This document shows positions 1,148-31,953 of a stretch of DNA of 64,000 bases, in pieces. The translations under genes were made by a program, and so were the position numbers. The notes beneath the pieces were generated by a model. The model worked only from the letters and a program-made list of their open reading frames with translations. It searched no databases and was not told the DNA's origin. Origin of the DNA: an uncultured virus (IMG/VR IMGVR_UViG_3300042554_000984) (Duplodnaviria; Heunggongvirae; Uroviricota; Caudoviricetes; Kyanoviridae). Each line of letters begins with the position of its first letter. The stretch's first letter is position 1. The stretch covers positions 1 to 64,000 of IMG/VR virus record IMGVR_UViG_3300042554_000984. One strand, given 5' to 3'.

Positions 1148-1759
1148 CTAGGGGGTAGGGTTGTTGTAGTTGATGGGGTGGTACTGGGAGCGGTGGCTCC
1201 TGCGTGGCGGTGGGGGTGGGGTGGCCGCAGGCGGGGAGGAGTTGTCGAAGGCGTAGTAGGGGCCACCGAAGTACTTGTTGGCCGACTGGATCGCGATATC
1301 GATGATGTGCGGCCACGCCATCCCCCCGTCATGCAACTTCAACAGTTCATCCTCAAACTCCTCGGCGGTGTCCACGGTGCCCATGGTGTTGGAACCCTTG
1401 CAGCGGTAAGTCCACTCGGCATCGATCAGGCTCTCCCACAGGGAACGGGCGATGGGGGTCGGCAGGCTGTTGCACACACCGTGCTTGTGGGGCAGTCCTG
1501 CTGCCTTGATCTCGGGGAAGGCATCCCACATAGGCGGGTCTTTGCCGTCACAGGTACGGTAGATGACCGTCATCTCGCTGGTGTCTTTCGGAAGCAGGAC
1601 ACGGAGTTTCGTGAAGATGAGGAAGATGTTGGAATTGGTGGGATGCCACATTCGCCAGAAAGCCATGGGGCGAATCTTGTTGTGCAACAGATGGTTGCTC
1701 CACTCTGCCCTAGGCATGGAGGGGTAGGTCAGGAATCTGGCAGTCGCACTCTTGTTCAC
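1148..1759 (-). CDS. hypothetical protein with Pro-rich low-complexity C-terminus
   Basis: Part of ORF 1148..1846. Likely GTG start at 1759, overlapping the stop of the upstream gene (GTGA). Confidence 0.55.
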   Translation of the reverse strand: MNKSATARFLTYPSMPRAEWSNHLLHNKIRPMAFWRMWHPTNSNIFLIFTKLRVLLPKDTSEMTVIYRTCDGKDPPMWDAFPEIKAAGLPHKHGVCNSLPTPIARSLWESLIDAEWTYRCKGSNTMGTVDTAEEFEDELLKLHDGGMAWPHIIDIAIQSANKYFGGPYYAFDNSSPPAATPPPPPRRSHRSQYHPINYNNPTP

Positions 1760-1983
1760 TTCTGTCTCTTGGCCAGCAGGCGGTAGTACAGGCTCGGCAG
1801 GGCCATGATGGTGAAGCCGGTGGCGATCAGGGCATTGGATGACCAAAACCCGTAGCCACGGTCACGCAGGAATTGGTAAATTCCAAAGAGCAGGCTCTGC
1901 CCGATGAAGACCACCGATGCGTACAGGGGAAGCACGACCAACATCGTGGTCAGGGTAATCAGAATGGGCTTCTTGGAATTCAC
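1756..1983 (-). CDS. small membrane protein (2 hydrophobic segments)
   Basis: 75 aa ORF with hydrophobic stretches, coupled to its neighbours. Confidence 0.55.
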   Translation of the reverse strand: MNSKKPILITLTTMLVVLPLYASVVFIGQSLLFGIYQFLRDRGYGFWSSNALIATGFTIMALPSLYYRLLAKRQK

Positions 1984-2093
1984 TTGTTCATCTCCTCAAA
2001 GAGAAAGCCACAGACGACAATCCACAGCAGGATGATGACTGAAATCAAAAACAGTCCCAATCCCATGTTGAAGACCACCGAAAGAAATGTCAT
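1980..2093 (-). CDS. small single-TM peptide (37 aa)
   Basis: Manual translation MTFLSVVFNMGLGLFLISVIILLWIVVCGFLFEEMNK; fills the gap with start/stop overlaps. Confidence 0.45.
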   Translation of the reverse strand: MTFLSVVFNMGLGLFLISVIILLWIVVCGFLFEEMNK

Positions 2094-2470
2094 CACGGCT
2101 TCAACTCCTTCGTGAGAGTGCCAGCGAACGGCGGCAGGTTCTTCACCCACATCAGAATCTCAACCAACTCGTCAGGACTCACATGGCCCTTGACTTGCTG
2201 ATCGTCGGAAAAGAGGATGAAGTCCTCGTTGGGATCGAAGATTGCAACTTCAACATTGGCAGCAGGCTCAAGTTCAAGATGCTCACTCGGTGCAGGGTAC
2301 TTGTCCCTCTCATAAGTATTGCTTCGATGGGGTTCGCTGTACATGCCAACCCCATACACGACCGAAACCTTGTAGCCGTTACGGAAACGCATCACCATCG
2401 ATCCCTTGGGATACTCTCCGGGACCGTGGCGTTGAACCATGAACAACTGCGGGAATTCTTGAATATCCAT
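2093..2470 (-). CDS. hypothetical phage protein (125 aa)
   Basis: F.NGYKVSVVYG.GMYS...EVAIFD...VKGHVSPDEL pattern typical of small phage proteins; co-oriented with the VWA gene. Confidence 0.65.
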   Translation of the reverse strand: MDIQEFPQLFMVQRHGPGEYPKGSMVMRFRNGYKVSVVYGVGMYSEPHRSNTYERDKYPAPSEHLELEPAANVEVAIFDPNEDFILFSDDQQVKGHVSPDELVEILMWVKNLPPFAGTLTKELKP

Positions 2471-2472
2471 GT

Positions 2473-4830
2473 TCAGTCTCGCTTGCTCACTCGGGCGGCG
2501 ATACGAGCCATCAGCGGACGGCTCGACTTGTTCTTGGAAATCTCGTCGGAGAGGGCACGGGCCAACTTGGCCTTCGTCGCCGTGGTGCCGTCGATGGCAT
2601 CAAGGTAGTCCTCCTCGTCGGCCTCAAGGTCGGTCAGGCCGAACCACTCGGAGTAGCCCATCCACTCCTCGCCCGAAACCCAACCCTCGTCGCGGAGGAA
2701 CTTCTTCTTGGCCGCGATGTAGGCCTCGCCGTTGACAACGGCCTTGGCATACTCCTTGGTCTTCTTGCTCATTCGGGCCACGCAAGTCTGCATGTAGGAG
2801 TTGAGGGCACGGGTTCCGTCGATGCGGAAGCCGATCACATTGCAGTCAGCCTCAACCCGAAGGTAGCGAAGGTAGGCATCCTCGGCACCCGTGTAGGCTT
2901 CCACCGCCCGCTTGCCCTGAATGTTGACTTCAGCGAAGTCGCGGCTGTAGCCCGTGGGCGAGTTATCGTCGGTCCACACATTCACCCAACGGTCAGCCAC
3001 ATAGCGGTAGCCCGTCCGATCCGTAGCCTCGCCATCGGTGAGGATGACGGTGTTCACGATCTGGACACCGGTCTTTGCACGGAACATCGGGACCACGGTA
3101 GCCATCGAAGCGATGGCCGCATTCAGCGGAGTGCCGTTGAGGTAGTACTTGGAGGCAAGGTGATCGCCCTTGGCATTCTTGCCAAACATCTCGTCGTGAC
3201 GGTAGGACCGGCTGTGCTTGGCCCAAGCGAGGAGTCCCGCGAGGGCAGTACGAATCTGCACGGGCTTGGCCGAAGCCGACAAGATGTTCAGCAGGCGGAA
3301 GTCGGAGAAGATGAGTTCGCCGTCATTGCGAGTCCAAACCTTTTCCTTAACGATGCCGTGAGCATCGGAGAAAGCGTAGACTTCGCAGGGGATGTTCGCC
3401 GCAGCGCAGAACTGCACCAAGCAGCCCAACTGCATGATCGTGGGCTCAAGGATGCGATTCATGCTGCCCGACCAGTCAAGCAGGAACACAAGTCCGTGAT
3501 TCTTGCCTTCCTTCTTGACTTCGTAGGAACCGAAGATTTCCTCCGAAATCCGATAGGCCCACAGGCGGCTGGGGTCGATGGCACCCGTATCGGCGGTGCG
3601 AGTGCGGTTAGCCTCGTCAGCGGCCTTGCGGCGCATGAATTCCTGAACAAGCGCCGTGATCGAACGGCGATTCTTGGCCATGAACTGCTGATAGAGGGCG
3701 AAGCCGTCACCCTTCTCGGCCATCAGCCGAAGATCATCGATAACCTCGCTGAAGGGCAGGATGCCCTTGGCGGCATCGAAGGTCGGCATTCTGACCGTGG
3801 AAGTCCCATAGTTGGAATGCTCGTCGCGGTTCTGCTTGGCAAGTTCCTCGAAAGCCGAATCCGTCACCGACTCACGGGGAGTCCGATTCTTGGATTCCTT
3901 CGTTGACTTGCCCTGAGCCTCGCCCTCGCTCTCATCGTCCGAATCCGACTCCGACTCCTCGCCCTCGTCGCTGGCGTTATCGGACTCCTCGCCCTCCTCG
4001 CCACCTTCGGTGCTTTCGTCGGCGTTTTCGTTCTCGCCCTCGTCGGCGGTATCGCCCCGCTCCTCGCCCTCTTCGGACTCGTCAGAACCCGACGAATCGC
4101 CCTGCTCCTCGTCGGACTCCTGCTTTTGGTTGTCCTGCGGACTGCCGCTGCCCTCGCCTTCCTCACCGTCCTGCGGCTCGGACATGTCGCCGTCCTCGCC
4201 CTGCGACTCTTCCTGCGAGGAGTAGTCGAAGAGTTCCTTGGCAAGGGCAACAACCTCGTCCCAAGACTTGGTAGTCGCGACCCGCTTGACAAGGGGAAGT
4301 TCAGCGGCAGAGAACGGGACATTGACCGCGAAACCAACCTTATAGTGAATGTTGATTCGGTCAATCAGCGGGAGTTCCGAAAGATCCTTGTCAAGGGCAA
4401 GCAACTTCGGGTTCGTGATCGTCAGACTACGGTACGCCTTGGCGAAGGTCGAACGCAGGCCGGGATAGGTATCCTTCATGCTGCGTTCGATTCGGGCATC
4501 CTCAACGATGTTCACATAGCCCTTGAAGGAGTTGAAGCCTTCCTTGCCGACGAGTTCGGTGAGTTCCTTCACCCATGCGTCACCCTTGGGGCTGTGCATG
4601 GCGTGGCCGACTTCGTGAGCGACGAGCATGTCGTACAGGTCGCCGTCCATCGCCTTCCAAACAGGAAGGGTCAGAAGACGGGTCTTGGTGTCAAACGATG
4701 CGGTCGCGGCCCGATGCGAGTGCTGCACCCGAATGTTTTCGGTCGCAAGCAGACGGGCCAGAAGCGAAAGAGCCTCAACCTGACGGCGGTTCAGGTTTGG
4801 CTTCGGGGTGTTGGCTAGGGTAGGGGTCAC
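2473..4830 (-). CDS. metallopeptidase (HExxH) - acidic linker - VWA domain protein (CobT-like partner of MoxR/CobS ATPase)
   Basis: AHEVGH zinc motif, NIVEDARIE, long E/D/S-rich linker, VWA MIDAS motifs LLDWSGSM, GTPL and ILTDG. Confidence 0.85.
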   Translation of the reverse strand: MTPTLANTPKPNLNRRQVEALSLLARLLATENIRVQHSHRAATASFDTKTRLLTLPVWKAMDGDLYDMLVAHEVGHAMHSPKGDAWVKELTELVGKEGFNSFKGYVNIVEDARIERSMKDTYPGLRSTFAKAYRSLTITNPKLLALDKDLSELPLIDRINIHYKVGFAVNVPFSAAELPLVKRVATTKSWDEVVALAKELFDYSSQEESQGEDGDMSEPQDGEEGEGSGSPQDNQKQESDEEQGDSSGSDESEEGEERGDTADEGENENADESTEGGEEGEESDNASDEGEESESDSDDESEGEAQGKSTKESKNRTPRESVTDSAFEELAKQNRDEHSNYGTSTVRMPTFDAAKGILPFSEVIDDLRLMAEKGDGFALYQQFMAKNRRSITALVQEFMRRKAADEANRTRTADTGAIDPSRLWAYRISEEIFGSYEVKKEGKNHGLVFLLDWSGSMNRILEPTIMQLGCLVQFCAAANIPCEVYAFSDAHGIVKEKVWTRNDGELIFSDFRLLNILSASAKPVQIRTALAGLLAWAKHSRSYRHDEMFGKNAKGDHLASKYYLNGTPLNAAIASMATVVPMFRAKTGVQIVNTVILTDGEATDRTGYRYVADRWVNVWTDDNSPTGYSRDFAEVNIQGKRAVEAYTGAEDAYLRYLRVEADCNVIGFRIDGTRALNSYMQTCVARMSKKTKEYAKAVVNGEAYIAAKKKFLRDEGWVSGEEWMGYSEWFGLTDLEADEEDYLDAIDGTTATKAKLARALSDEISKNKSSRPLMARIAARVSKRD

Positions 4831-26311: not shown

Positions 26312-26618
26312 GCAAGTTGAGTCGCGAGGAAACGCAAAGGCTGTGGGCGACAATGGACGAGCAATCGGTCCATTTCAGATTTGGCGTTCTTACTGGCAGG
26401 ATGCCGTTGAGCATGACAAGAACATCGGAGGTCGTTACGAGGATTGCTTCGACAAGGAGTATGCCAAGCGAATCGTCCTTGCCTATTGGGATCGTTATGC
26501 TCCTAAGAATGCAACAGATGAGCAATTGGCTAGGATCCACAACGGTGGCCCGAAAGGCCACCGAAACCCGAAGACTCTAGAGTATTGGACAAAGGTAAAG
26601 AGAGAACTACTGAAATGA
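26199..26618 (+). CDS. i-type (destabilase-like) lysozyme / lytic transglycosylase with signal peptide
   Basis: QVESRG...GPFQIWRSYWQDA...ARIHNGGPKG; GGAG RBS. Confidence 0.8.
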   Translation: MKMKSARLILSALLIYATVAVAAVPTFSRHERLLQAIEQVESRGNAKAVGDNGRAIGPFQIWRSYWQDAVEHDKNIGGRYEDCFDKEYAKRIVLAYWDRYAPKNATDEQLARIHNGGPKGHRNPKTLEYWTKVKRELLK

Positions 26619-27013
26619 CAAACAACCCATTCGGATACTCATACTACTTGGATATGTACAACTGCCGTGCAGGAGCAGCCGATGACTTGGAACTCACCTA
26701 CCGATTCCTTGAGCGGGTGGTTGACCGCATCGGCATGACTCGCATGAGTCAGCCCATTGTCATTCATGGGCCTACTCATTACGGCAAGGAACTGTATCCA
26801 CAGAAGGCCGGTGTGAGCGGTTGGGTTCCGCTGATTGAAAGTGGAATTCAGATTCATTCCATGGAACCAACTCACTTCATCACTCTTGATGTTTATTCTT
26901 GCAACAAGTTCGACAAGAACATCATTCTTGAGTATGCCAAGGAGTGCTTCGATTTCACCGACTTCGAAGAAAACTTCTTTGTTCGTGGCAGGGGATACGG
27001 CAATATCGTCTGA
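26615..27013 (+). CDS. speD: S-adenosylmethionine decarboxylase-like proenzyme
   Basis: GVSGWVPLIESGIQIH...LDVYSC (ES autocleavage site). Confidence 0.75.
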   Translation: MTNNPFGYSYYLDMYNCRAGAADDLELTYRFLERVVDRIGMTRMSQPIVIHGPTHYGKELYPQKAGVSGWVPLIESGIQIHSMEPTHFITLDVYSCNKFDKNIILEYAKECFDFTDFEENFFVRGRGYGNIV

Positions 27014-27026
27014 TGCGGGGTGAGGT

Positions 27027-27710
27027 ATGCCGTATAAAGACAAAGAAAAGGCGAAGGCTGCTGCAAAGGCAAGATACCTTGCAAACAGAGATAAGAAAAT
27101 TGCACAAGCAAAAGCATGGGCAGAAGCCCATCGTGAACAGGTAAGAGAAAATCATAGAAGATGGCAGAAAGAAAACAGGAATCGGGTTAACAGATCAAAG
27201 AGGAAATACGAATCAAAAGATCCCCAAAAATGGAAGAAGTGGAGAAATAAATGGAGAAAAGATTGGTGGAGAAACAATCCCGAACAAGCAGCGGAGTTGT
27301 GTAGAAGAAAGAAATATCGGAAAACCCAAAGTTTAGTGCCACTTACAGTTAAAGAAATACAAGCAGTTCTTTTACTAGAGCGAACACGAAAGCAACTTCA
27401 AAAAAAGACAGGGCAAACCTACCACATAGATCACATTCTGCCGATTATTCACGGCGGCATTCATCACCCCGTCAATTTGAGAATACTTCATGCGAGTTAC
27501 AATTGTTCAAAACGACATAAACTTCTTCCCGAAGCGATTGATCTTGCACATGAACACTATAAGTTGTACTATGAGCGGATCGGTACTGAAAGAGCAGAGG
27601 AGTTCGTGAAGCAACTCGCAAAAGCCATTGGGCTGAACGAGATAGACCCGAAGAGAGGCGTTTTGTCTTCCCTTCCAAAAAGAGTAACACTAGAGGATTT
27701 AATGGAATGA
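27027..27710 (+). CDS. free-standing HNH homing endonuclease
   Basis: K/R-rich helical N-terminus, HIDHILPIIHGGIHHPVNLRILHASYNCSK; AT-richer than its neighbours. Confidence 0.85.
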   Translation: MPYKDKEKAKAAAKARYLANRDKKIAQAKAWAEAHREQVRENHRRWQKENRNRVNRSKRKYESKDPQKWKKWRNKWRKDWWRNNPEQAAELCRRKKYRKTQSLVPLTVKEIQAVLLLERTRKQLQKKTGQTYHIDHILPIIHGGIHHPVNLRILHASYNCSKRHKLLPEAIDLAHEHYKLYYERIGTERAEEFVKQLAKAIGLNEIDPKRGVLSSLPKRVTLEDLME

Positions 27711-27922
27711 ACACGCATCGGATCATCCAAGGTGACTGCATCAAGGGCATGGCAACATTGCCCGAAGGATGCATTAATACTTGCATCACATCTCCTCCCT
27801 ATTTTGGCCTGCGTTCATATTTGCCCGATGGTGTAAAACTCCGAGAGGATTTGACACCCGAACAGGTGGAGTATGTGTTAACTGAATTAAAAAATAGAGG
27901 TATTGACCATATTTCGGAGTGA
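27707..27922 (+). CDS. DNA N4-C/N6-A methyltransferase, N-terminal fragment (catalytic SPPY)
   Basis: IIQGDCI...CITSPPYFGLRSY, then a non-homologous ~30-aa tail and TGA. Confidence 0.85.
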   Translation: MNTHRIIQGDCIKGMATLPEGCINTCITSPPYFGLRSYLPDGVKLREDLTPEQVEYVLTELKNRGIDHISE

Positions 27923-27950
27923 TCTTCCATATATAGTATGGAGAAACTAT

Positions 27951-28517
27951 ATGGGTCAAAAAAGAAAACCTGATGGAACATTTGAGAAAAACAGCCATTG
28001 GAGAACCCCCAATAAACTGTGGGACAAACAATGGCTTGAAGAACAATATTTGTCAAAGCAGCGATCCATGCAAGACATAGCATCCGAAATGGGTGTATCA
28101 GAACCTGCTGTTCGTCATTGGATCAAAAAGCATCAAATACCATCACGAAAAATATCCGAAGCAAGAGCAATCAAATATTGGGGTTCGTTTGGAGCGGACA
28201 ATCCAATGTGGAACCGTAAAGGTGAACTAAATCCGAACTGGAAAGGTGGGGTAACACCAGAAAGACAGGCATTCTATACGAGCAAGGAATGGAAGACTGC
28301 CTGTAGAACTGTTTGGAATCGTGATGGTGCGTGTTGTAGAAGATGTGGATTGCATAAATGCGAAGCAGAAGATGTTCCTTTTCACATCCACCACATAAGA
28401 CCATTTAGTGAATCGATTGAGTTAAGAACAGATGTCAACAATCTTGCTTTGGTTTGTGAAATATGTCACCATTGGATACACTCAAAACAAAACACACAGA
28501 AAGAGTTTTTGGTATGA
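27951..28517 (+). CDS. HNH endonuclease with N-terminal HTH, inserted in the methyltransferase gene
   Basis: SMQDIASEMGVSEPAVRHW (HTH), NPNWKGG, RDGACCRRCG...HIHHI...NLALVCEICHHWIH. Confidence 0.9.
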   Translation: MGQKRKPDGTFEKNSHWRTPNKLWDKQWLEEQYLSKQRSMQDIASEMGVSEPAVRHWIKKHQIPSRKISEARAIKYWGSFGADNPMWNRKGELNPNWKGGVTPERQAFYTSKEWKTACRTVWNRDGACCRRCGLHKCEAEDVPFHIHHIRPFSESIELRTDVNNLALVCEICHHWIHSKQNTQKEFLV

Positions 28518-29407
28518 TCTATAAGAAGTCTGACATCCCCGATGATCTCATGAAGTTTTTTGAACCCGCCGAGATAGGGCAGGAGGACACCGTTGAGGGA
28601 TATGTAAAGAAAATGGTTGAAGTCTTCCGTGGGGTTCGTCGCATTCTTCGTGATGATGGAACTTTGTGGCTCAATTTGGGGGACTCTTACATGTCGGCTA
28701 CTTGCGTTCCTCCTCCACAGACGGTGGCAAATGGCAACAATCGTGGGATGCCAACCGACTCCATCCCTGCCAATCGACAGAAGCAGAACGGTCTGAAGCA
28801 GAAGGACTTGATCGGCATTCCTTGGCGGGTGGCACTTGCTCTTCAGGCGGATGGTTGGTATCTCCGTCAGGACATTATCTGGCACAAGCCAAACCCGATG
28901 CCCGAAAGCGTGGAAGACCGTTGCACCAAGGCACACGAATATATCTTCTTGCTGTCCAAGAAGCCAAAGTATTATTATGACCACAATGCAATCAAGGAAC
29001 CACACAAGTGGAGTCATGTTGGGGAAATGCGTAAAGGCAAGGAAAGTAAAAATGGAGGAAGCATCGAAGAACCCATAAAGGGCAGAGGAAACACCACCGG
29101 CAGTTTCAGAGCCTTTGGGGAAGGCGGCAAGAACAAGCGTTCTGTTTGGACTGTCACCACCAAGCCTTTCCGTGGGGCACATTTTGCAACTTTCCCAAAA
29201 GAACTTATCGAACCTTGTGTCTTGGCAGGATGCCCCAAGGGAGGAACGGTATTCGATCCCTTCACGGGCAGCGGCACAACGGCGGTAGTTGCATTGAACA
29301 ACGAAAGGAACTATATTGGTACGGAACTGAATCCCGACTACATCGCCCTTGCAGAGGGCCGCATTCGGGATGAGGTGACTGCCAGCCTTTCGGAGTTCCT
29401 TGCTTGA
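28514..29407 (+). CDS. DNA methyltransferase (beta class), C-terminal fragment
   Basis: EIGQED...RRILRDDGTLWLNLGDSY, IIWHKPNPMPES, HFATFP, DPFTGSGTT (SAM-binding); ATG 28514 overlaps the HNH stop. Confidence 0.9.
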   Translation: MIYKKSDIPDDLMKFFEPAEIGQEDTVEGYVKKMVEVFRGVRRILRDDGTLWLNLGDSYMSATCVPPPQTVANGNNRGMPTDSIPANRQKQNGLKQKDLIGIPWRVALALQADGWYLRQDIIWHKPNPMPESVEDRCTKAHEYIFLLSKKPKYYYDHNAIKEPHKWSHVGEMRKGKESKNGGSIEEPIKGRGNTTGSFRAFGEGGKNKRSVWTVTTKPFRGAHFATFPKELIEPCVLAGCPKGGTVFDPFTGSGTTAVVALNNERNYIGTELNPDYIALAEGRIRDEVTASLSEFLA

Positions 29408-31953
29408 AGCCCTTCTATACGAACATCTCTATTCGTGGCAACAGCATCCTTCACCGTGGCTATGATGCCAACGGCAAGCGGGTGCATGAGAAGGTTTCCT
29501 ACAGCCCGACCCTATTCGTCCCGAGCAAGGGAGGAAATCCCGAGTGGCATACTCTTGATGGCCGTGGGGTGGAGCCGTTCAAGCCGGGAGACATCAAGGA
29601 TTGCCGCGAGTTCGTGGAAGAATACCGAGATGTCGGTGGGTTCGAAATCTTCGGCAACACCGAGTACATCTACCAATACATCGGTGACACCTTTGAGGGC
29701 GAGGTTGAGTATGATCCTTCTCTCCTACGCATTGGATTCATCGACATCGAAACGGAGTCCGAGGAAGGATTTCCGCAGATCAATACCGCCAACGAGCGGG
29801 TGAATGCAATCACCCTGAAGTTCAGGGACAAGACATTCGTGTTTGGTCTTGGACAGTTCTCTATCCCTGACGAGAATGTCAAGTGCTTTCAGTACGACGA
29901 TGAGGGACGGATGCTGCGGGAGTTTCTTGCGGCATGGGAGTCCCTTGATCTTGACATCATCACGGGGTGGAATGTCAACTTCTTCGACATTCCTTATCTT
30001 GTCAATCGCATCACTCGCCTGTTTGGCGAGAAGGAAGCCATGCGGCTGTCGCCGTGGCGGGTCATCAAGAGCCGAATCGTTGAGGTCATGGAGCGAGAGA
30101 ACGAGGTGTATGATCTGATCGGCATGTCGATCCTTGACTACTTCGACCTGTATCGCAAGTTCACCTATGTCACACGGGAGTCCTACAAACTAGACCACAT
30201 CGCATGGGTTGAATTGTCCGACCGAAAGATCGCCTACGATGGATCGTTGGCAGACTTCTACCGCAATGACTTTCAGCGGTTCATTGAGTACAACATCCAC
30301 GACACCAATCTCGTTGACCGTCTTGAGCAGAAGTTGAAGTTGATGGAACTTGCCCTTGCGCTTGCTTACAGCGCAAAGGTGAACCTGAACGATGTCTTCT
30401 CCCAAGTCCGCACATGGGACGCAATCATCTACCACGAACTCTGCAAGCGAAAGATCGCCATCCCCATGAAGCGGGGAGGGATCGAAAAGGAGGACAAGTT
30501 CGAAGGTGCATATGTCAAGGAGCCCATCGTCGGGGAGCATCAATGGGTGGCATCCTTCGACTTGGATTCCCTGTACCCACACCTGATGATGCAGTACAAC
30601 CTCAGCCCCGAGACAAAGACCAATCATGGCAAGCGTAATGCTTTTCCCGTGGATCAGTTCCTGTCTGGCCCGTGGCAGGAGGATTCGGACATAGCCAAGC
30701 AGATGGCCAAGTGGCAGGACAATGACTTGTCGGTTGCCGCCAATTGCATCACCTTCCGCCGCGATGTGCAGGGCATGTTGCCTTACCTCATGGAAGTGAT
30801 GTATGAGGAACGCAAGATGTACAAGGGCAAGTTGCTTGATGCCAAGCGCAGGCTCAAGACCTTGGGCGATGATGCGGATCCAGAGGAAGTCAAGAAAGTC
30901 AAGAACGACATCTCCAAGTTTCACAACTTCCAACTTGTGCGTAAGATTCAGTTGAACTCGGCATTCGGTGCCTGCGGTAACGAGTACTTCCGCTATTACG
31001 ATCAGGACATTGCGGAAGCCATCACGCTGTCGGGTCAGTTGTCCATCCGTTGGATCGAACGCCATCTCAATGACTTCCTGAACAAGAGCCTGAAGACCAA
31101 GAAGACCGAAGACTTCATCATTGCCGCAGACACGGACTCCGTTTATCTGCGGTTGGGAAAGTTGGTCGAACAGGTAATGCCGCAGGAAACAGACAAGCAG
31201 AAGATCACCAAGTTCCTTGACAAGTTCTGCAACGATGTATTGCAGCCCTTCATCAACAAGAAGTATGAAGACCTCGCCAAGCAGCAGAATGCCTACGGTC
31301 AGAAGATGCACATGAAGCGGGAGGCGATTGCATCCAAGGGCATATGGACGGCAAAGAAGCGGTACATGCTCAATGTCTTCATGGGAGAGGAGAATGTTCT
31401 GCTTGGCACTCCCGACCTGAAGATCATGGGTATCGAAACTTCGCGGTCATCGACCCCACAGATTGTTCGTGATGCCTTGAAGGAATCGATTCGGATCATC
31501 ATGAACGGCACCGAGGAGCAGTTGATAGCCTTCGTCGCGGACTTCCATGATCGCTTCCGCAAGTCCCCGATCCACGAAATTGCCTTCCCCCGTTCCTGCA
31601 AGAAGATGTCCGAATACAGAGACTCTTCCTCCATCTACCGCAAGTCAACTCCCATCGCGGTCAAGGGCTCGCTCGTATACAATCATTGGTTGAAGGAGAA
31701 GGGATTGTCGAAGAAGTATCCTCTCATCAGCGAGGGCGAGAAGATCAAGTTCGTGTACCTGAAGATTCCCAATACGATTCGTGAACATGTGATCTCGTTT
31801 TCTTCGGCGTTTCCAAGCGAGTTGGGCTTGGATAAATACATTGACTATGATACGCAGTTCGAAAAGTCCTTTCAGGAACCCCTGCGGACAATCATCAACT
31901 GCATCGGATGGAAGATGGAGAAGACAAGTTCATTGGAAGACCTGTTCGCATGA
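29404..31953 (+). CDS. gp43: family B DNA polymerase (gp43-like)
   Basis: DIET exonuclease motif, SFDLDSLYP, KIQLNSAFG, DTDS, KKRY; C-terminal SLEDLFA. TTG start; no intein seen. Confidence 0.97.
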   Translation: MKPFYTNISIRGNSILHRGYDANGKRVHEKVSYSPTLFVPSKGGNPEWHTLDGRGVEPFKPGDIKDCREFVEEYRDVGGFEIFGNTEYIYQYIGDTFEGEVEYDPSLLRIGFIDIETESEEGFPQINTANERVNAITLKFRDKTFVFGLGQFSIPDENVKCFQYDDEGRMLREFLAAWESLDLDIITGWNVNFFDIPYLVNRITRLFGEKEAMRLSPWRVIKSRIVEVMERENEVYDLIGMSILDYFDLYRKFTYVTRESYKLDHIAWVELSDRKIAYDGSLADFYRNDFQRFIEYNIHDTNLVDRLEQKLKLMELALALAYSAKVNLNDVFSQVRTWDAIIYHELCKRKIAIPMKRGGIEKEDKFEGAYVKEPIVGEHQWVASFDLDSLYPHLMMQYNLSPETKTNHGKRNAFPVDQFLSGPWQEDSDIAKQMAKWQDNDLSVAANCITFRRDVQGMLPYLMEVMYEERKMYKGKLLDAKRRLKTLGDDADPEEVKKVKNDISKFHNFQLVRKIQLNSAFGACGNEYFRYYDQDIAEAITLSGQLSIRWIERHLNDFLNKSLKTKKTEDFIIAADTDSVYLRLGKLVEQVMPQETDKQKITKFLDKFCNDVLQPFINKKYEDLAKQQNAYGQKMHMKREAIASKGIWTAKKRYMLNVFMGEENVLLGTPDLKIMGIETSRSSTPQIVRDALKESIRIIMNGTEEQLIAFVADFHDRFRKSPIHEIAFPRSCKKMSEYRDSSSIYRKSTPIAVKGSLVYNHWLKEKGLSKKYPLISEGEKIKFVYLKIPNTIREHVISFSSAFPSELGLDKYIDYDTQFEKSFQEPLRTIINCIGWKMEKTSSLEDLFA

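Follow-up and report, generated by a model that had tools for sequence, protein, structure and literature searches.

Free-standing homing endonuclease genes that divide a conserved enzyme gene in two are known as genes-in-pieces from Aeromonas phage Aeh1, where the order is nrdA-a, mobE, nrdA-b (Friedrich et al. 2007, via PMC2988022). Other cases in that review are mobA of T4, within the topoisomerase gene, and gene 43 of phage 25, which is split; how the pieces of a split gene assemble is treated there as an open question and, in the sections of the review available to us, no added peptides are named (PMC2988022). A related arrangement is that of the fractured genes, in which a split intein is combined with a free-standing endonuclease (Dassa et al. 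2009, PMC2677866, consulted in extracts). Moreover, the ShiLan domain has been described as an HNH that lies hidden, out of frame, in the methylases of mycobacteriophages (Arsenault, Gosselin and Gogarten 2025, PMC11855218). Here, a DNA methyltransferase (MTase) gene that is split by an HNH gene is described in an uncultured virus, at positions 27707 to 29407 of a stretch of 64,000 nucleotides (nt), called the window, which represents positions 1 to 64,000 of record IMGVR_UViG_3300042554_000984 (74,549 nt; CheckV completeness 34%). At the break, the N-terminal half of the enzyme (N-half) ends in an added tail and the C-terminal half (C-half) starts with an added leader, a pair of peptides that is called the clasp below. 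The main new result is that this pair recurs at many break points.

Three open reading frames (ORFs) lie head to tail on the plus strand at 27707-29407, according to an ORF and sequence check, and the stretch is present, whole or mostly, in 19 lake or freshwater metagenome runs dated 2016 to 2025. Its features are as follows.

27707..27922, + strand: N-half ORF, 71 amino acids (aa), ...SPPYFGLRSY followed by the 33-aa tail, with the TGA stop at 27920-27922
27707..27820, + strand: MTase N exon, M1-Y38, with motif IV SPPY at 27791-27802
27821..27922, + strand: tail, first half of the clasp: 33 codons LPDGVKLREDLTPEQVEYVLTELKNRGIDHISE and the stop codon TGA
27923..27950, + strand: spacer, 28 non-coding nt, with GGAG at 27940-27943, 7 nt ahead of the HNH start
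27951..28517, + strand: homing-endonuclease gene with helix-turn-helix (HTH) and HNH, ATG start, 188 aa plus stop
28514..29407, + strand: C-half ORF, 297 aa, whose ATG overlaps the HNH stop (ATGA)
28514..28570, + strand: leader, 19 codons MIYKKSDIPDDLMKFFEPA, second half of the clasp
28571..29407, + strand: MTase C exon, E20-A297 plus stop, with motif I FTGSGTT at 29261-29281

The enzyme encoded by the host gene belongs to the beta-class N4/N6 DNA methyltransferases. Its C-half aligns with PF01555 at 1.4e-47 (residues 20-281 against positions 18-220 of the 221 in the profile), and both halves match phrog_67, a phage MTase family, with N-half residues 1-39 on positions 121-159 and C-half residues 29-288 on positions 169-347. 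Since the phrog_67 matches end at N-half residue 39 and resume at C-half residue 29, the tail and the leader fall outside what the family profile covers. The break in the gene comes after motif IV, with SPPY in the N-half and FTGSGTT in the C-half, so that motif IV precedes motif I. The middle ORF matches PF01844 with 34.1 bits (Pfam cut-off 21.4) and phrog_8446 of the PHROGs database at 2.8e-26, with weak HTH matches at residues 25-68, and its two CxxC pairs and H..HH..N..H residues (C129, C132, H145, H147, H148, N164, C169, C172, H173 and H177) are invariant in eight relatives. The middle ORF is an intact HNH endonuclease gene, and the MTase gene that it divides is contiguous in relatives. 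In the closest uninterrupted relatives, P0009 and P0012 (P numbers denote our proteins, L numbers our loci and X numbers sequencing runs), the sequence reads ...SPPYFGLRSY-NGGDD-EIGQE..., and the window N exon is identical to that of P0009 in 37 of 38 residues. A split MTase, an intact HNH gene, coupling through ATGA and a mere 28 non-coding nt had been claimed in a prediction made from the letters of the window, and all of this was confirmed by the ORFs, the sequence and Pfam.

The locus has two features by which genes-in-pieces are recognized, an intact nuclease ORF between gene halves and presence or absence among near-identical alleles. As far as Aeh1 is described in the source available, the likeness is that a free-standing HNH gene splits a conserved enzyme into two cistrons, that neither an intron nor an intein takes part and that the products must reassemble. 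Unlike Aeh1, the cassette of the window has conserved tail and leader flanks, found at no fewer than six sites and outliving the nuclease; activity of the split enzyme has been shown for Aeh1, whereas the window MTase is known from sequence alone. The fractured genes, in the extracts of that paper, share with the window the order of N part plus peptide, spacer (27-51 nt there), endonuclease, and peptide plus C part; an endonuclease that overlaps the downstream start; Vsr-like (DUF559-type) nucleases among the passengers of such breaks; and one locus that is nuclease-free yet split (PMC2677866). However, the peptides of the window are not intein halves and amount to 52 aa in total, so any reunion of its MTase must be non-covalent. 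The hosts also differ, being replication and nucleotide enzymes there, and the word methylase does not occur in those extracts (PMC2677866). Regarding ShiLan, both cases present an HNH homing element inside the DNA methylase gene of a phage, the element being neither intron nor intein, and free-standing HNH genes of a related kind are located just upstream of related methylases, which is also the case at our loci L088 and L089 (PMC11855218). On the other hand, ShiLan is an in-frame read-through insert of 202 aa with no stop, whereas the N-half of the window ends at TGA 27920-27922; the methylase (Mantra gp64, DPPY type) and the site are others; and tail and leader motifs are not described for ShiLan (PMC11855218).

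The tail follows roughly the motif h-x-L-R-x-D-L-T-P-E-Q-x-A-Y-V-L-x-E-L-x-K-x-G-L, then a stop. With a hidden Markov model (HMM) built on the tail only, the same motif was found to end N-terminal MTase fragments that are broken elsewhere (26 proteins, 12.9-31.3 bits, against a maximum of 1.7 bits in reversed proteins). The breaks in these fragments follow GQIGLE-TP, NLGDSY plus a few residues, ..DGW or N-K/R-RSVWT, or lie inside a C-terminal zinc ribbon. An exhaustive profile search yielded 12,276 matches, whose best 150 representatives were sorted by tail: 75 were site-A N-fragments ending in the tail, 21 were longer N-fragments from other break sites with the same tail end, in 7 the tail was present with the chain continuing, and 47 presented no tail.

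The distribution of the pair was also followed in DNA by host-blind scans with the tail alignment, which gave 9 viral and 18 metagenome loci. Once these were merged with the loci found before and duplicates removed, there were 26 distinct loci with 27 clasps. In 24 of the 26, the downstream fragment opens with a leader of the form E/S-E/D-I/V-P-x-x-L-x-E/K-F/Y-F-E/D-P (by HMM and by eye), and in the remaining two the contig ends before the leader position. The break holds the following.

HNH gene on the host strand: 8 loci (window type, L084, L085, L004, L013, L199, L201, L267)
HNH gene on the opposite strand: 9 loci (L280, L281, L217, L283, L282, L286, L287, L297, L298)
DUF559/Vsr-like nuclease gene on the opposite strand: 5 loci (L285, L276/L291, L292, L296, L299)
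No nuclease: 3 loci (L294, L279, L200)
Contig end: 1 locus (L293)

All 14 opposite-strand nuclease ORFs are above the Pfam cut-offs, and the host family, wherever Pfam detects it, is PF01555. When all loci were scanned in six frames (34,434 segments), 45 of 45 tail matches and 30 of 30 leader matches fell on the host strand. Concerning the three loci that lack a nuclease, L294 remains in two pieces, about 180 nt apart; L279 carries the clasp in one chain, in a divergent MTase of the DPPY/HPT type; and L200 (2501-4836, an AT-rich phage) presents the MTase in three cistrons with two nuclease-free clasps, one after SPPY..Y and one after ..NPNW, and its gaps are short (about 17 to 40 nt), with AAGGA ahead of the ATG in the first. 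Thus, the tail/leader pair is present at no fewer than six break points of beta-class MTase genes, with two nuclease families in either strand, and also with no nuclease, contiguous or still split. This recurrence at many break points, with different nucleases or with none, indicates a portable clasp rather than one host loop. The idea that the peptides are borne by the element, which had been proposed for this locus, gains support from the occurrence of this tail and leader at a minimum of five further break points and from the second nuclease family.

The three-gene layout with a same-strand HNH gene is the same in eight distinct loci, down to 39% HNH identity and also in GC-rich DNA, so it is more than chance. 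All nine full-length relatives of the window HNH in viral contigs sit at MTase genes, seven inside a split gene (three of them window copies and two L013 copies) and the other two directly upstream of an uninterrupted MTase (L088, L089). None of 13 distant matches to the HNH domain alone had an adjoining MTase. A scan of genome contigs with the HNH profile returned six loci, two of which were read: L267, in the contig of a metagenome-assembled genome, is a split locus, and L268 is a distant HNH near which no MTase was seen.

Contiguous MTases with tail, linker and leader exist as well. P0173, P0178, P0250 and P0241 were the first seen, and a dedicated search gave 18 clusters, from which 17 sequences were read. 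Several of them present a Met or Val exactly where the split C-half starts (P0279, compared with the split N-half P0170; P0281; and P0275/6/8, compared with the split C-half P0305). The contiguous forms look like nuclease-free clasps and not like a native loop, because the nearest uninterrupted alleles lack the peptides, the pair is not bound to one site and several keep the start Met or Val. The original prediction had named contiguous homologs with both peptides as evidence against itself; such homologs were indeed found, as a minority, but the native loop that they were supposed to reveal is not what the nearest alleles and the many sites point to.

Tail, nuclease and leader are gained and lost as a unit among near-identical MTase alleles. 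Between the window and L085, nt identity is 87% in the tail, 82% in the HNH gene and 78% in the leader, against 64% and 60% in the flanking MTase exons; between L084 and the window, the HNH gene is 96% and the tail 94% identical, and the C exon 71-72%. Furthermore, P0002, which has the leader, and P0004, which is uninterrupted (...RDYQGGE|AEIGQED), are identical in 281 of 281 positions from AEIGQED to the end. A nuclease-free allele was found in lake run X17, where one 562-nt contig (depth 12.9) joins 27814 to 28570 and thereby lacks one stretch.

27815..28569, + strand: stretch missing from the nuclease-free allele, 755 nt replaced by 20 letters reading (R)DYGGGDD(EIG) in X17

The flanks of this joined contig differ from the window in 7 of 108 and 30 of 327 places. 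Other X17 contigs cover the cassette at depth 3-4 and, since both kinds of contig are present, occupied and empty alleles coexist in one sample; stretches that lack contig cover in runs X15 and X18 are no evidence of absence. Among the 28 pairs formed by eight loci, the identity of the peptides tracks HNH identity (r 0.91) above exon identity (r 0.65). That the peptides travel with the nuclease, as had been claimed, is borne out by the L085 identities, the P0002/P0004 pair and the X17 allele. No direct repeats that could restore the frame flank the cassette ends in the window. Both MTase halves are under purifying selection, the proportions of nonsynonymous and synonymous differences from L085 (pN/pS) being 0.21/0.87 in the N exon and 0.28/0.81 in the C exon.

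The structure of the clasp was predicted with AlphaFold2 on the contiguous form P0281, using an alignment of 81 rows (contiguous forms, C-halves and N-halves), and the model presented a mean predicted local distance difference test (pLDDT) of 78.9 and a predicted template modelling score (pTM) of 0.80. In the clasp, residues 46-100, the means of the 10-residue blocks are 80, 93, 94, 73, 88 and 94, and the elements are a strand (49-52), a helix (58-70), a weaker linker (71-83), a bridge (84-85), a helix (91-96) and a strand (97-99), after which the canonical helix 108-125 follows. The 55-residue insertion is confidently predicted as a small domain, and its block of low pLDDT is the linker, where split genes are broken. 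The fold of P0281 matches M.BceJIV, CcrM, PvuII, RsrI and MboIIA; among solved beta-class MTases, none covers the clasp insertion by sequence. When the C-half was modelled in a complex with residues 1-38 (the N exon) and 39-71 (the tail, the part scored) of the N-half, the ipSAE values were 0.32, 0.22 and 0.29, a median of 0.29 against a mark of 0.32; coming from runs made without controls, these values carry no weight either way on binding. Two other ideas about the peptides were dropped. One, hinted at by a MAFFT alignment and the ShiLan paper, was that the tail is a diverged duplicate of the exon just downstream; in hhalign, the tail profile scored 9.8 against 131 native loop/helix sequences, the reversed control 10.3 and shuffles up to 13.1. 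The other was that the clasp is a split ribbon-helix-helix, and 0 of 60 N-halves match such a Pfam family at E<=1.

The pair was also looked for outside these sets. A word search for the tail in longer proteins gave 18 candidates, none of them useful, which the later profile searches showed to be a failure of sensitivity. In cultured phages, the 30-aa tail query had no match at E<=1; among the matches listed, none covers the tail convincingly (30 of 142 records) or covers leader residues 1-11 (25 of 239). Three apparent matches to both features in cultured phages proved to be ordinary full-length MTases, and DLane gp61 and Mantra gp63 have plain loops and no interruption. A search of the ESM Atlas by features returned no usable match, and no description of the tail/leader pair was found in the literature searched, which includes passages of the 2023 ShiLan paper.

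Taking these data together, we consider, with a probability of about 0.65, that a unit of HNH gene and clasp splits this MTase of a lake phage, spreads by homing and lets the halves re-associate non-covalently. The mobile unit consists of the tail codons with their stop, the spacer with its ribosome-binding site and the nuclease gene, and the restart codon with the leader codons. Two chains, of 71 and 297 aa, would then make up the MTase, and in the window translation of the C-half would be coupled to the HNH gene by the ATGA overlap. The tail would give a strand and a helix, and the leader a short strand, a helix and a strand, which could fold into one domain of about 55 aa that tethers both chains non-covalently, so that the MTase core would be completed by ordinary fragment complementation and the insertion would cost the phage little. 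During mixed infection, the nuclease would cut nuclease-free MTase alleles near the motif IV codons, and repair would copy the whole unit into the cut allele. The clasp persists after nuclease loss, either fused in one chain or still split. A wider proposal is that the clasp represents a third vehicle of homing endonucleases beside introns and inteins, an element-borne non-covalent docking domain that fits many loops, is swapped between nuclease families and outlives them; this we hold tentatively, as a possibility that falls a little short of even odds.

Several points weigh against this explanation. Every one of the 26 loci and of the 96 fragments that end in the tail is a DNA MTase, and a general module might be expected elsewhere too. 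The exhaustive profile included the MTase N exon, so it could find MTases only, and the host-blind scans with DNA patterns were narrow, 22 and 309 stretches leading to 13 and 18 relatives. The 18 clusters of contiguous clasp-bearing MTases may leave room for a host origin of the clasp. Moreover, the correlations of peptide identity with HNH and exon identity rest on pairs that are not independent, and the structure of the clasp is a prediction on one sequence, consisting of model confidence and elements. In the metatranscriptome run X20, a 278-nt contig (27994-28271, inside the HNH gene, 6 differences) and a short one (28846-28902) are evidence neither of transcription nor of splicing. Binding between tail and leader, MTase activity, and the HNH target and its cleavage are things that we infer. 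The first reading of the genetics was largely right, but tags in other genes, which it took as the mark of a new class of mobile element, were not seen, every host found being a DNA MTase.

Other explanations have to be weighed against the same data. The halves could be rejoined into one chain by a group I intron, another self-splicing RNA or a split intein, and this would not be strange, as phage group I introns often carry HNH genes; also, the split-intein fractured genes present this succession of spacer, nuclease and overlapping restart, in the extracts of that work (PMC2677866). Nevertheless, a search of Rfam at E<=10 over 27000-30000 gave three chance matches and no intron family, with the reservation that a long ORF inside a loop can lower the sensitivity of the covariance models, and at E<=0.1 seven related split loci (37,279 nt) gave just a tRNA and no intron family; an RNA reading would also have to make do with the 28 non-coding nt. 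The tail and the leader evolve as protein and not as RNA, with pN/pS against L085 of 0.04/0.46 and 0.11/0.69, respectively. When the window is compared with the GC-rich L013, the tail keeps 39% aa and 44% nt identity and the leader DNA 52%, with the motifs conserved, and in contiguous forms both peptides remain in the mature chain. At the junctions, the tail starts with Leu39 and the leader ends in Pro-Ala, with Glu next; neither junction shows the signs of an intein, a Cys/Ser/Thr nucleophile or a His-Asn end, and 33 + 19 aa make 52 residues where a HINT fold takes about 130 aa. For these reasons the peptides are not intein halves. The sole joined form found comes from a DNA run, X17, with 20 other letters between the two sides. 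Consequently, restoration by splicing is hardly credible, and the absence of intron and intein features claimed for this locus agrees with the Rfam negatives and the junction residues.

The strongest competitor is that the clasp came first, tail, linker and leader being an insertion domain of MTases whose linker was invaded secondarily by nucleases, so that the peptides, as host or domain sequence, were co-converted with the nuclease and had not evolved along with it or on its behalf. Inteins and introns undergo a similar invasion, two unrelated nuclease families in both strands occupy the same linker, L279 has a contiguous clasp with no nuclease, and among the 18 contiguous clusters four mutually diverged members (P0178, P0250, P0279 and P0284) share a C-terminal zinc ribbon. 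We still judge it unlikely: the nearest uninterrupted alleles of the window's gene lack any clasp, split forms outnumber contiguous ones by 96 to 7 among the best 150 profile matches, several contiguous forms keep the start Met or Val of the C-half as in-frame fusions after nuclease loss would, and a nuclease-free domain has no obvious route to six sites. It is considerably less probable that the peptides serve the nuclease, in its translation or by acting with it on DNA, or that the halves complement each other without them. Rossmann-fold fragments can do so untagged, as with the split M.HhaI and M.SssI used in engineering, in the part of that literature seen here, and the clasp was seen in MTase genes only; but the pair persists where no nuclease is present (L200, L294 and L279) and where the nuclease is on the opposite strand (14 loci), and therefore coupling to nuclease expression cannot explain it. 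A dead MTase, whose halves would be the decaying remnants of a gene destroyed by insertion, is very improbable, even though phage MTases are often dispensable and the motif codons of related loci contain short insertions that break the frame. In both halves the frame stays open and the ribosome-binding sites and every motif are retained, purifying selection acts on both across relatives at 60% DNA identity, and tailed N-fragments are kept in 96 representative clusters of the best 150. The preferred explanation is thus still the HNH unit that carries its own clasp.

Some further features of these loci deserve to be mentioned. Directly upstream of the split MTase of the window lies a second free-standing nuclease gene (27027-27710, + strand), whose stop codon shares an ATGA with the start of the MTase; its matches are phrog_1035 (endonuclease VII, 3.5e-10) and HNH phrogs, with none in Pfam, and the syntenic locus L004 lacks it. 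A scan of 26500-29800 found no promoters or terminators on the plus strand, with counts not above those of shuffles. The variable region of the C-half is a mosaic: window positions 28950-29130 (residues about 150-205) are common to the window and P0002-P0008, P0009 and P0012, otherwise the closest alleles, present unrelated sequence there, and a contig of run X15 has 29002-29129 swapped for 108 other letters. Upstream of the split MTase of L085, at 1604-2284 (+), there is a 226-aa ORF with an AP2-like motif. Such a motif is typical of HNH-AP2 homing nucleases.

The MTase gene is a hotspot for several kinds of mobile insert. The third piece of L200 contains an intein with a LAGLIDADG domain (PF14890, PF14528), and the same MTase family presents inteins or LAGLIDADG inserts after DIIW|C and after ALQ.. 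(P0241, P0305, L201, L281). Where the MTase belongs to a subfamily in which GLEPTPDC is followed by a Cys cluster (L217 at 2459-3400, L283 and L294), the clasp lies between the first Cys and CxxCxxC, about 13 residues downstream of the site used in the window. In P0322, NLGDSY is followed within a single frame by a tail-like peptide, some 150 residues of low complexity and a leader-like peptide; this protein may be a read-through, ShiLan-like version whose nuclease gene is concealed in a different frame. Short insertions of 4-8 nt that start with TGA interrupt the codons of the most conserved MTase motifs in L276 (about 2430-2445), L088 (about 3150-3156), L285 (about 3975-3985) and L279 (about 3223-3232). 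Their sites are SPPY|WGLRDY or SPPYY|GLRDY, next to an upstream HNH of the window family, and also HPT|VK(P/S) in two contigs with different 8-mers. They could represent immunity to the nuclease, minimal splits or footprints.

To our knowledge, homing endonucleases have been thought to persist in genes only through self-splicing introns, inteins or lucky break spots. There is a fair chance that the clasp cassette deserves a place beside introns and inteins as a third lifestyle of homing nucleases. For annotation, the result means that 'orphan' MTase fragments of 60-100 aa and their partners would be one enzyme; for engineering, the peptides are natural, compact candidates for heterodimerising tags in split enzymes, such as split MTases for targeted methylation. 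A portable pair of peptides, if true, would be a simple answer at the protein level to the question of how split enzymes reassemble, and the clasp would explain why the MTase genes of phages are so often in pieces.

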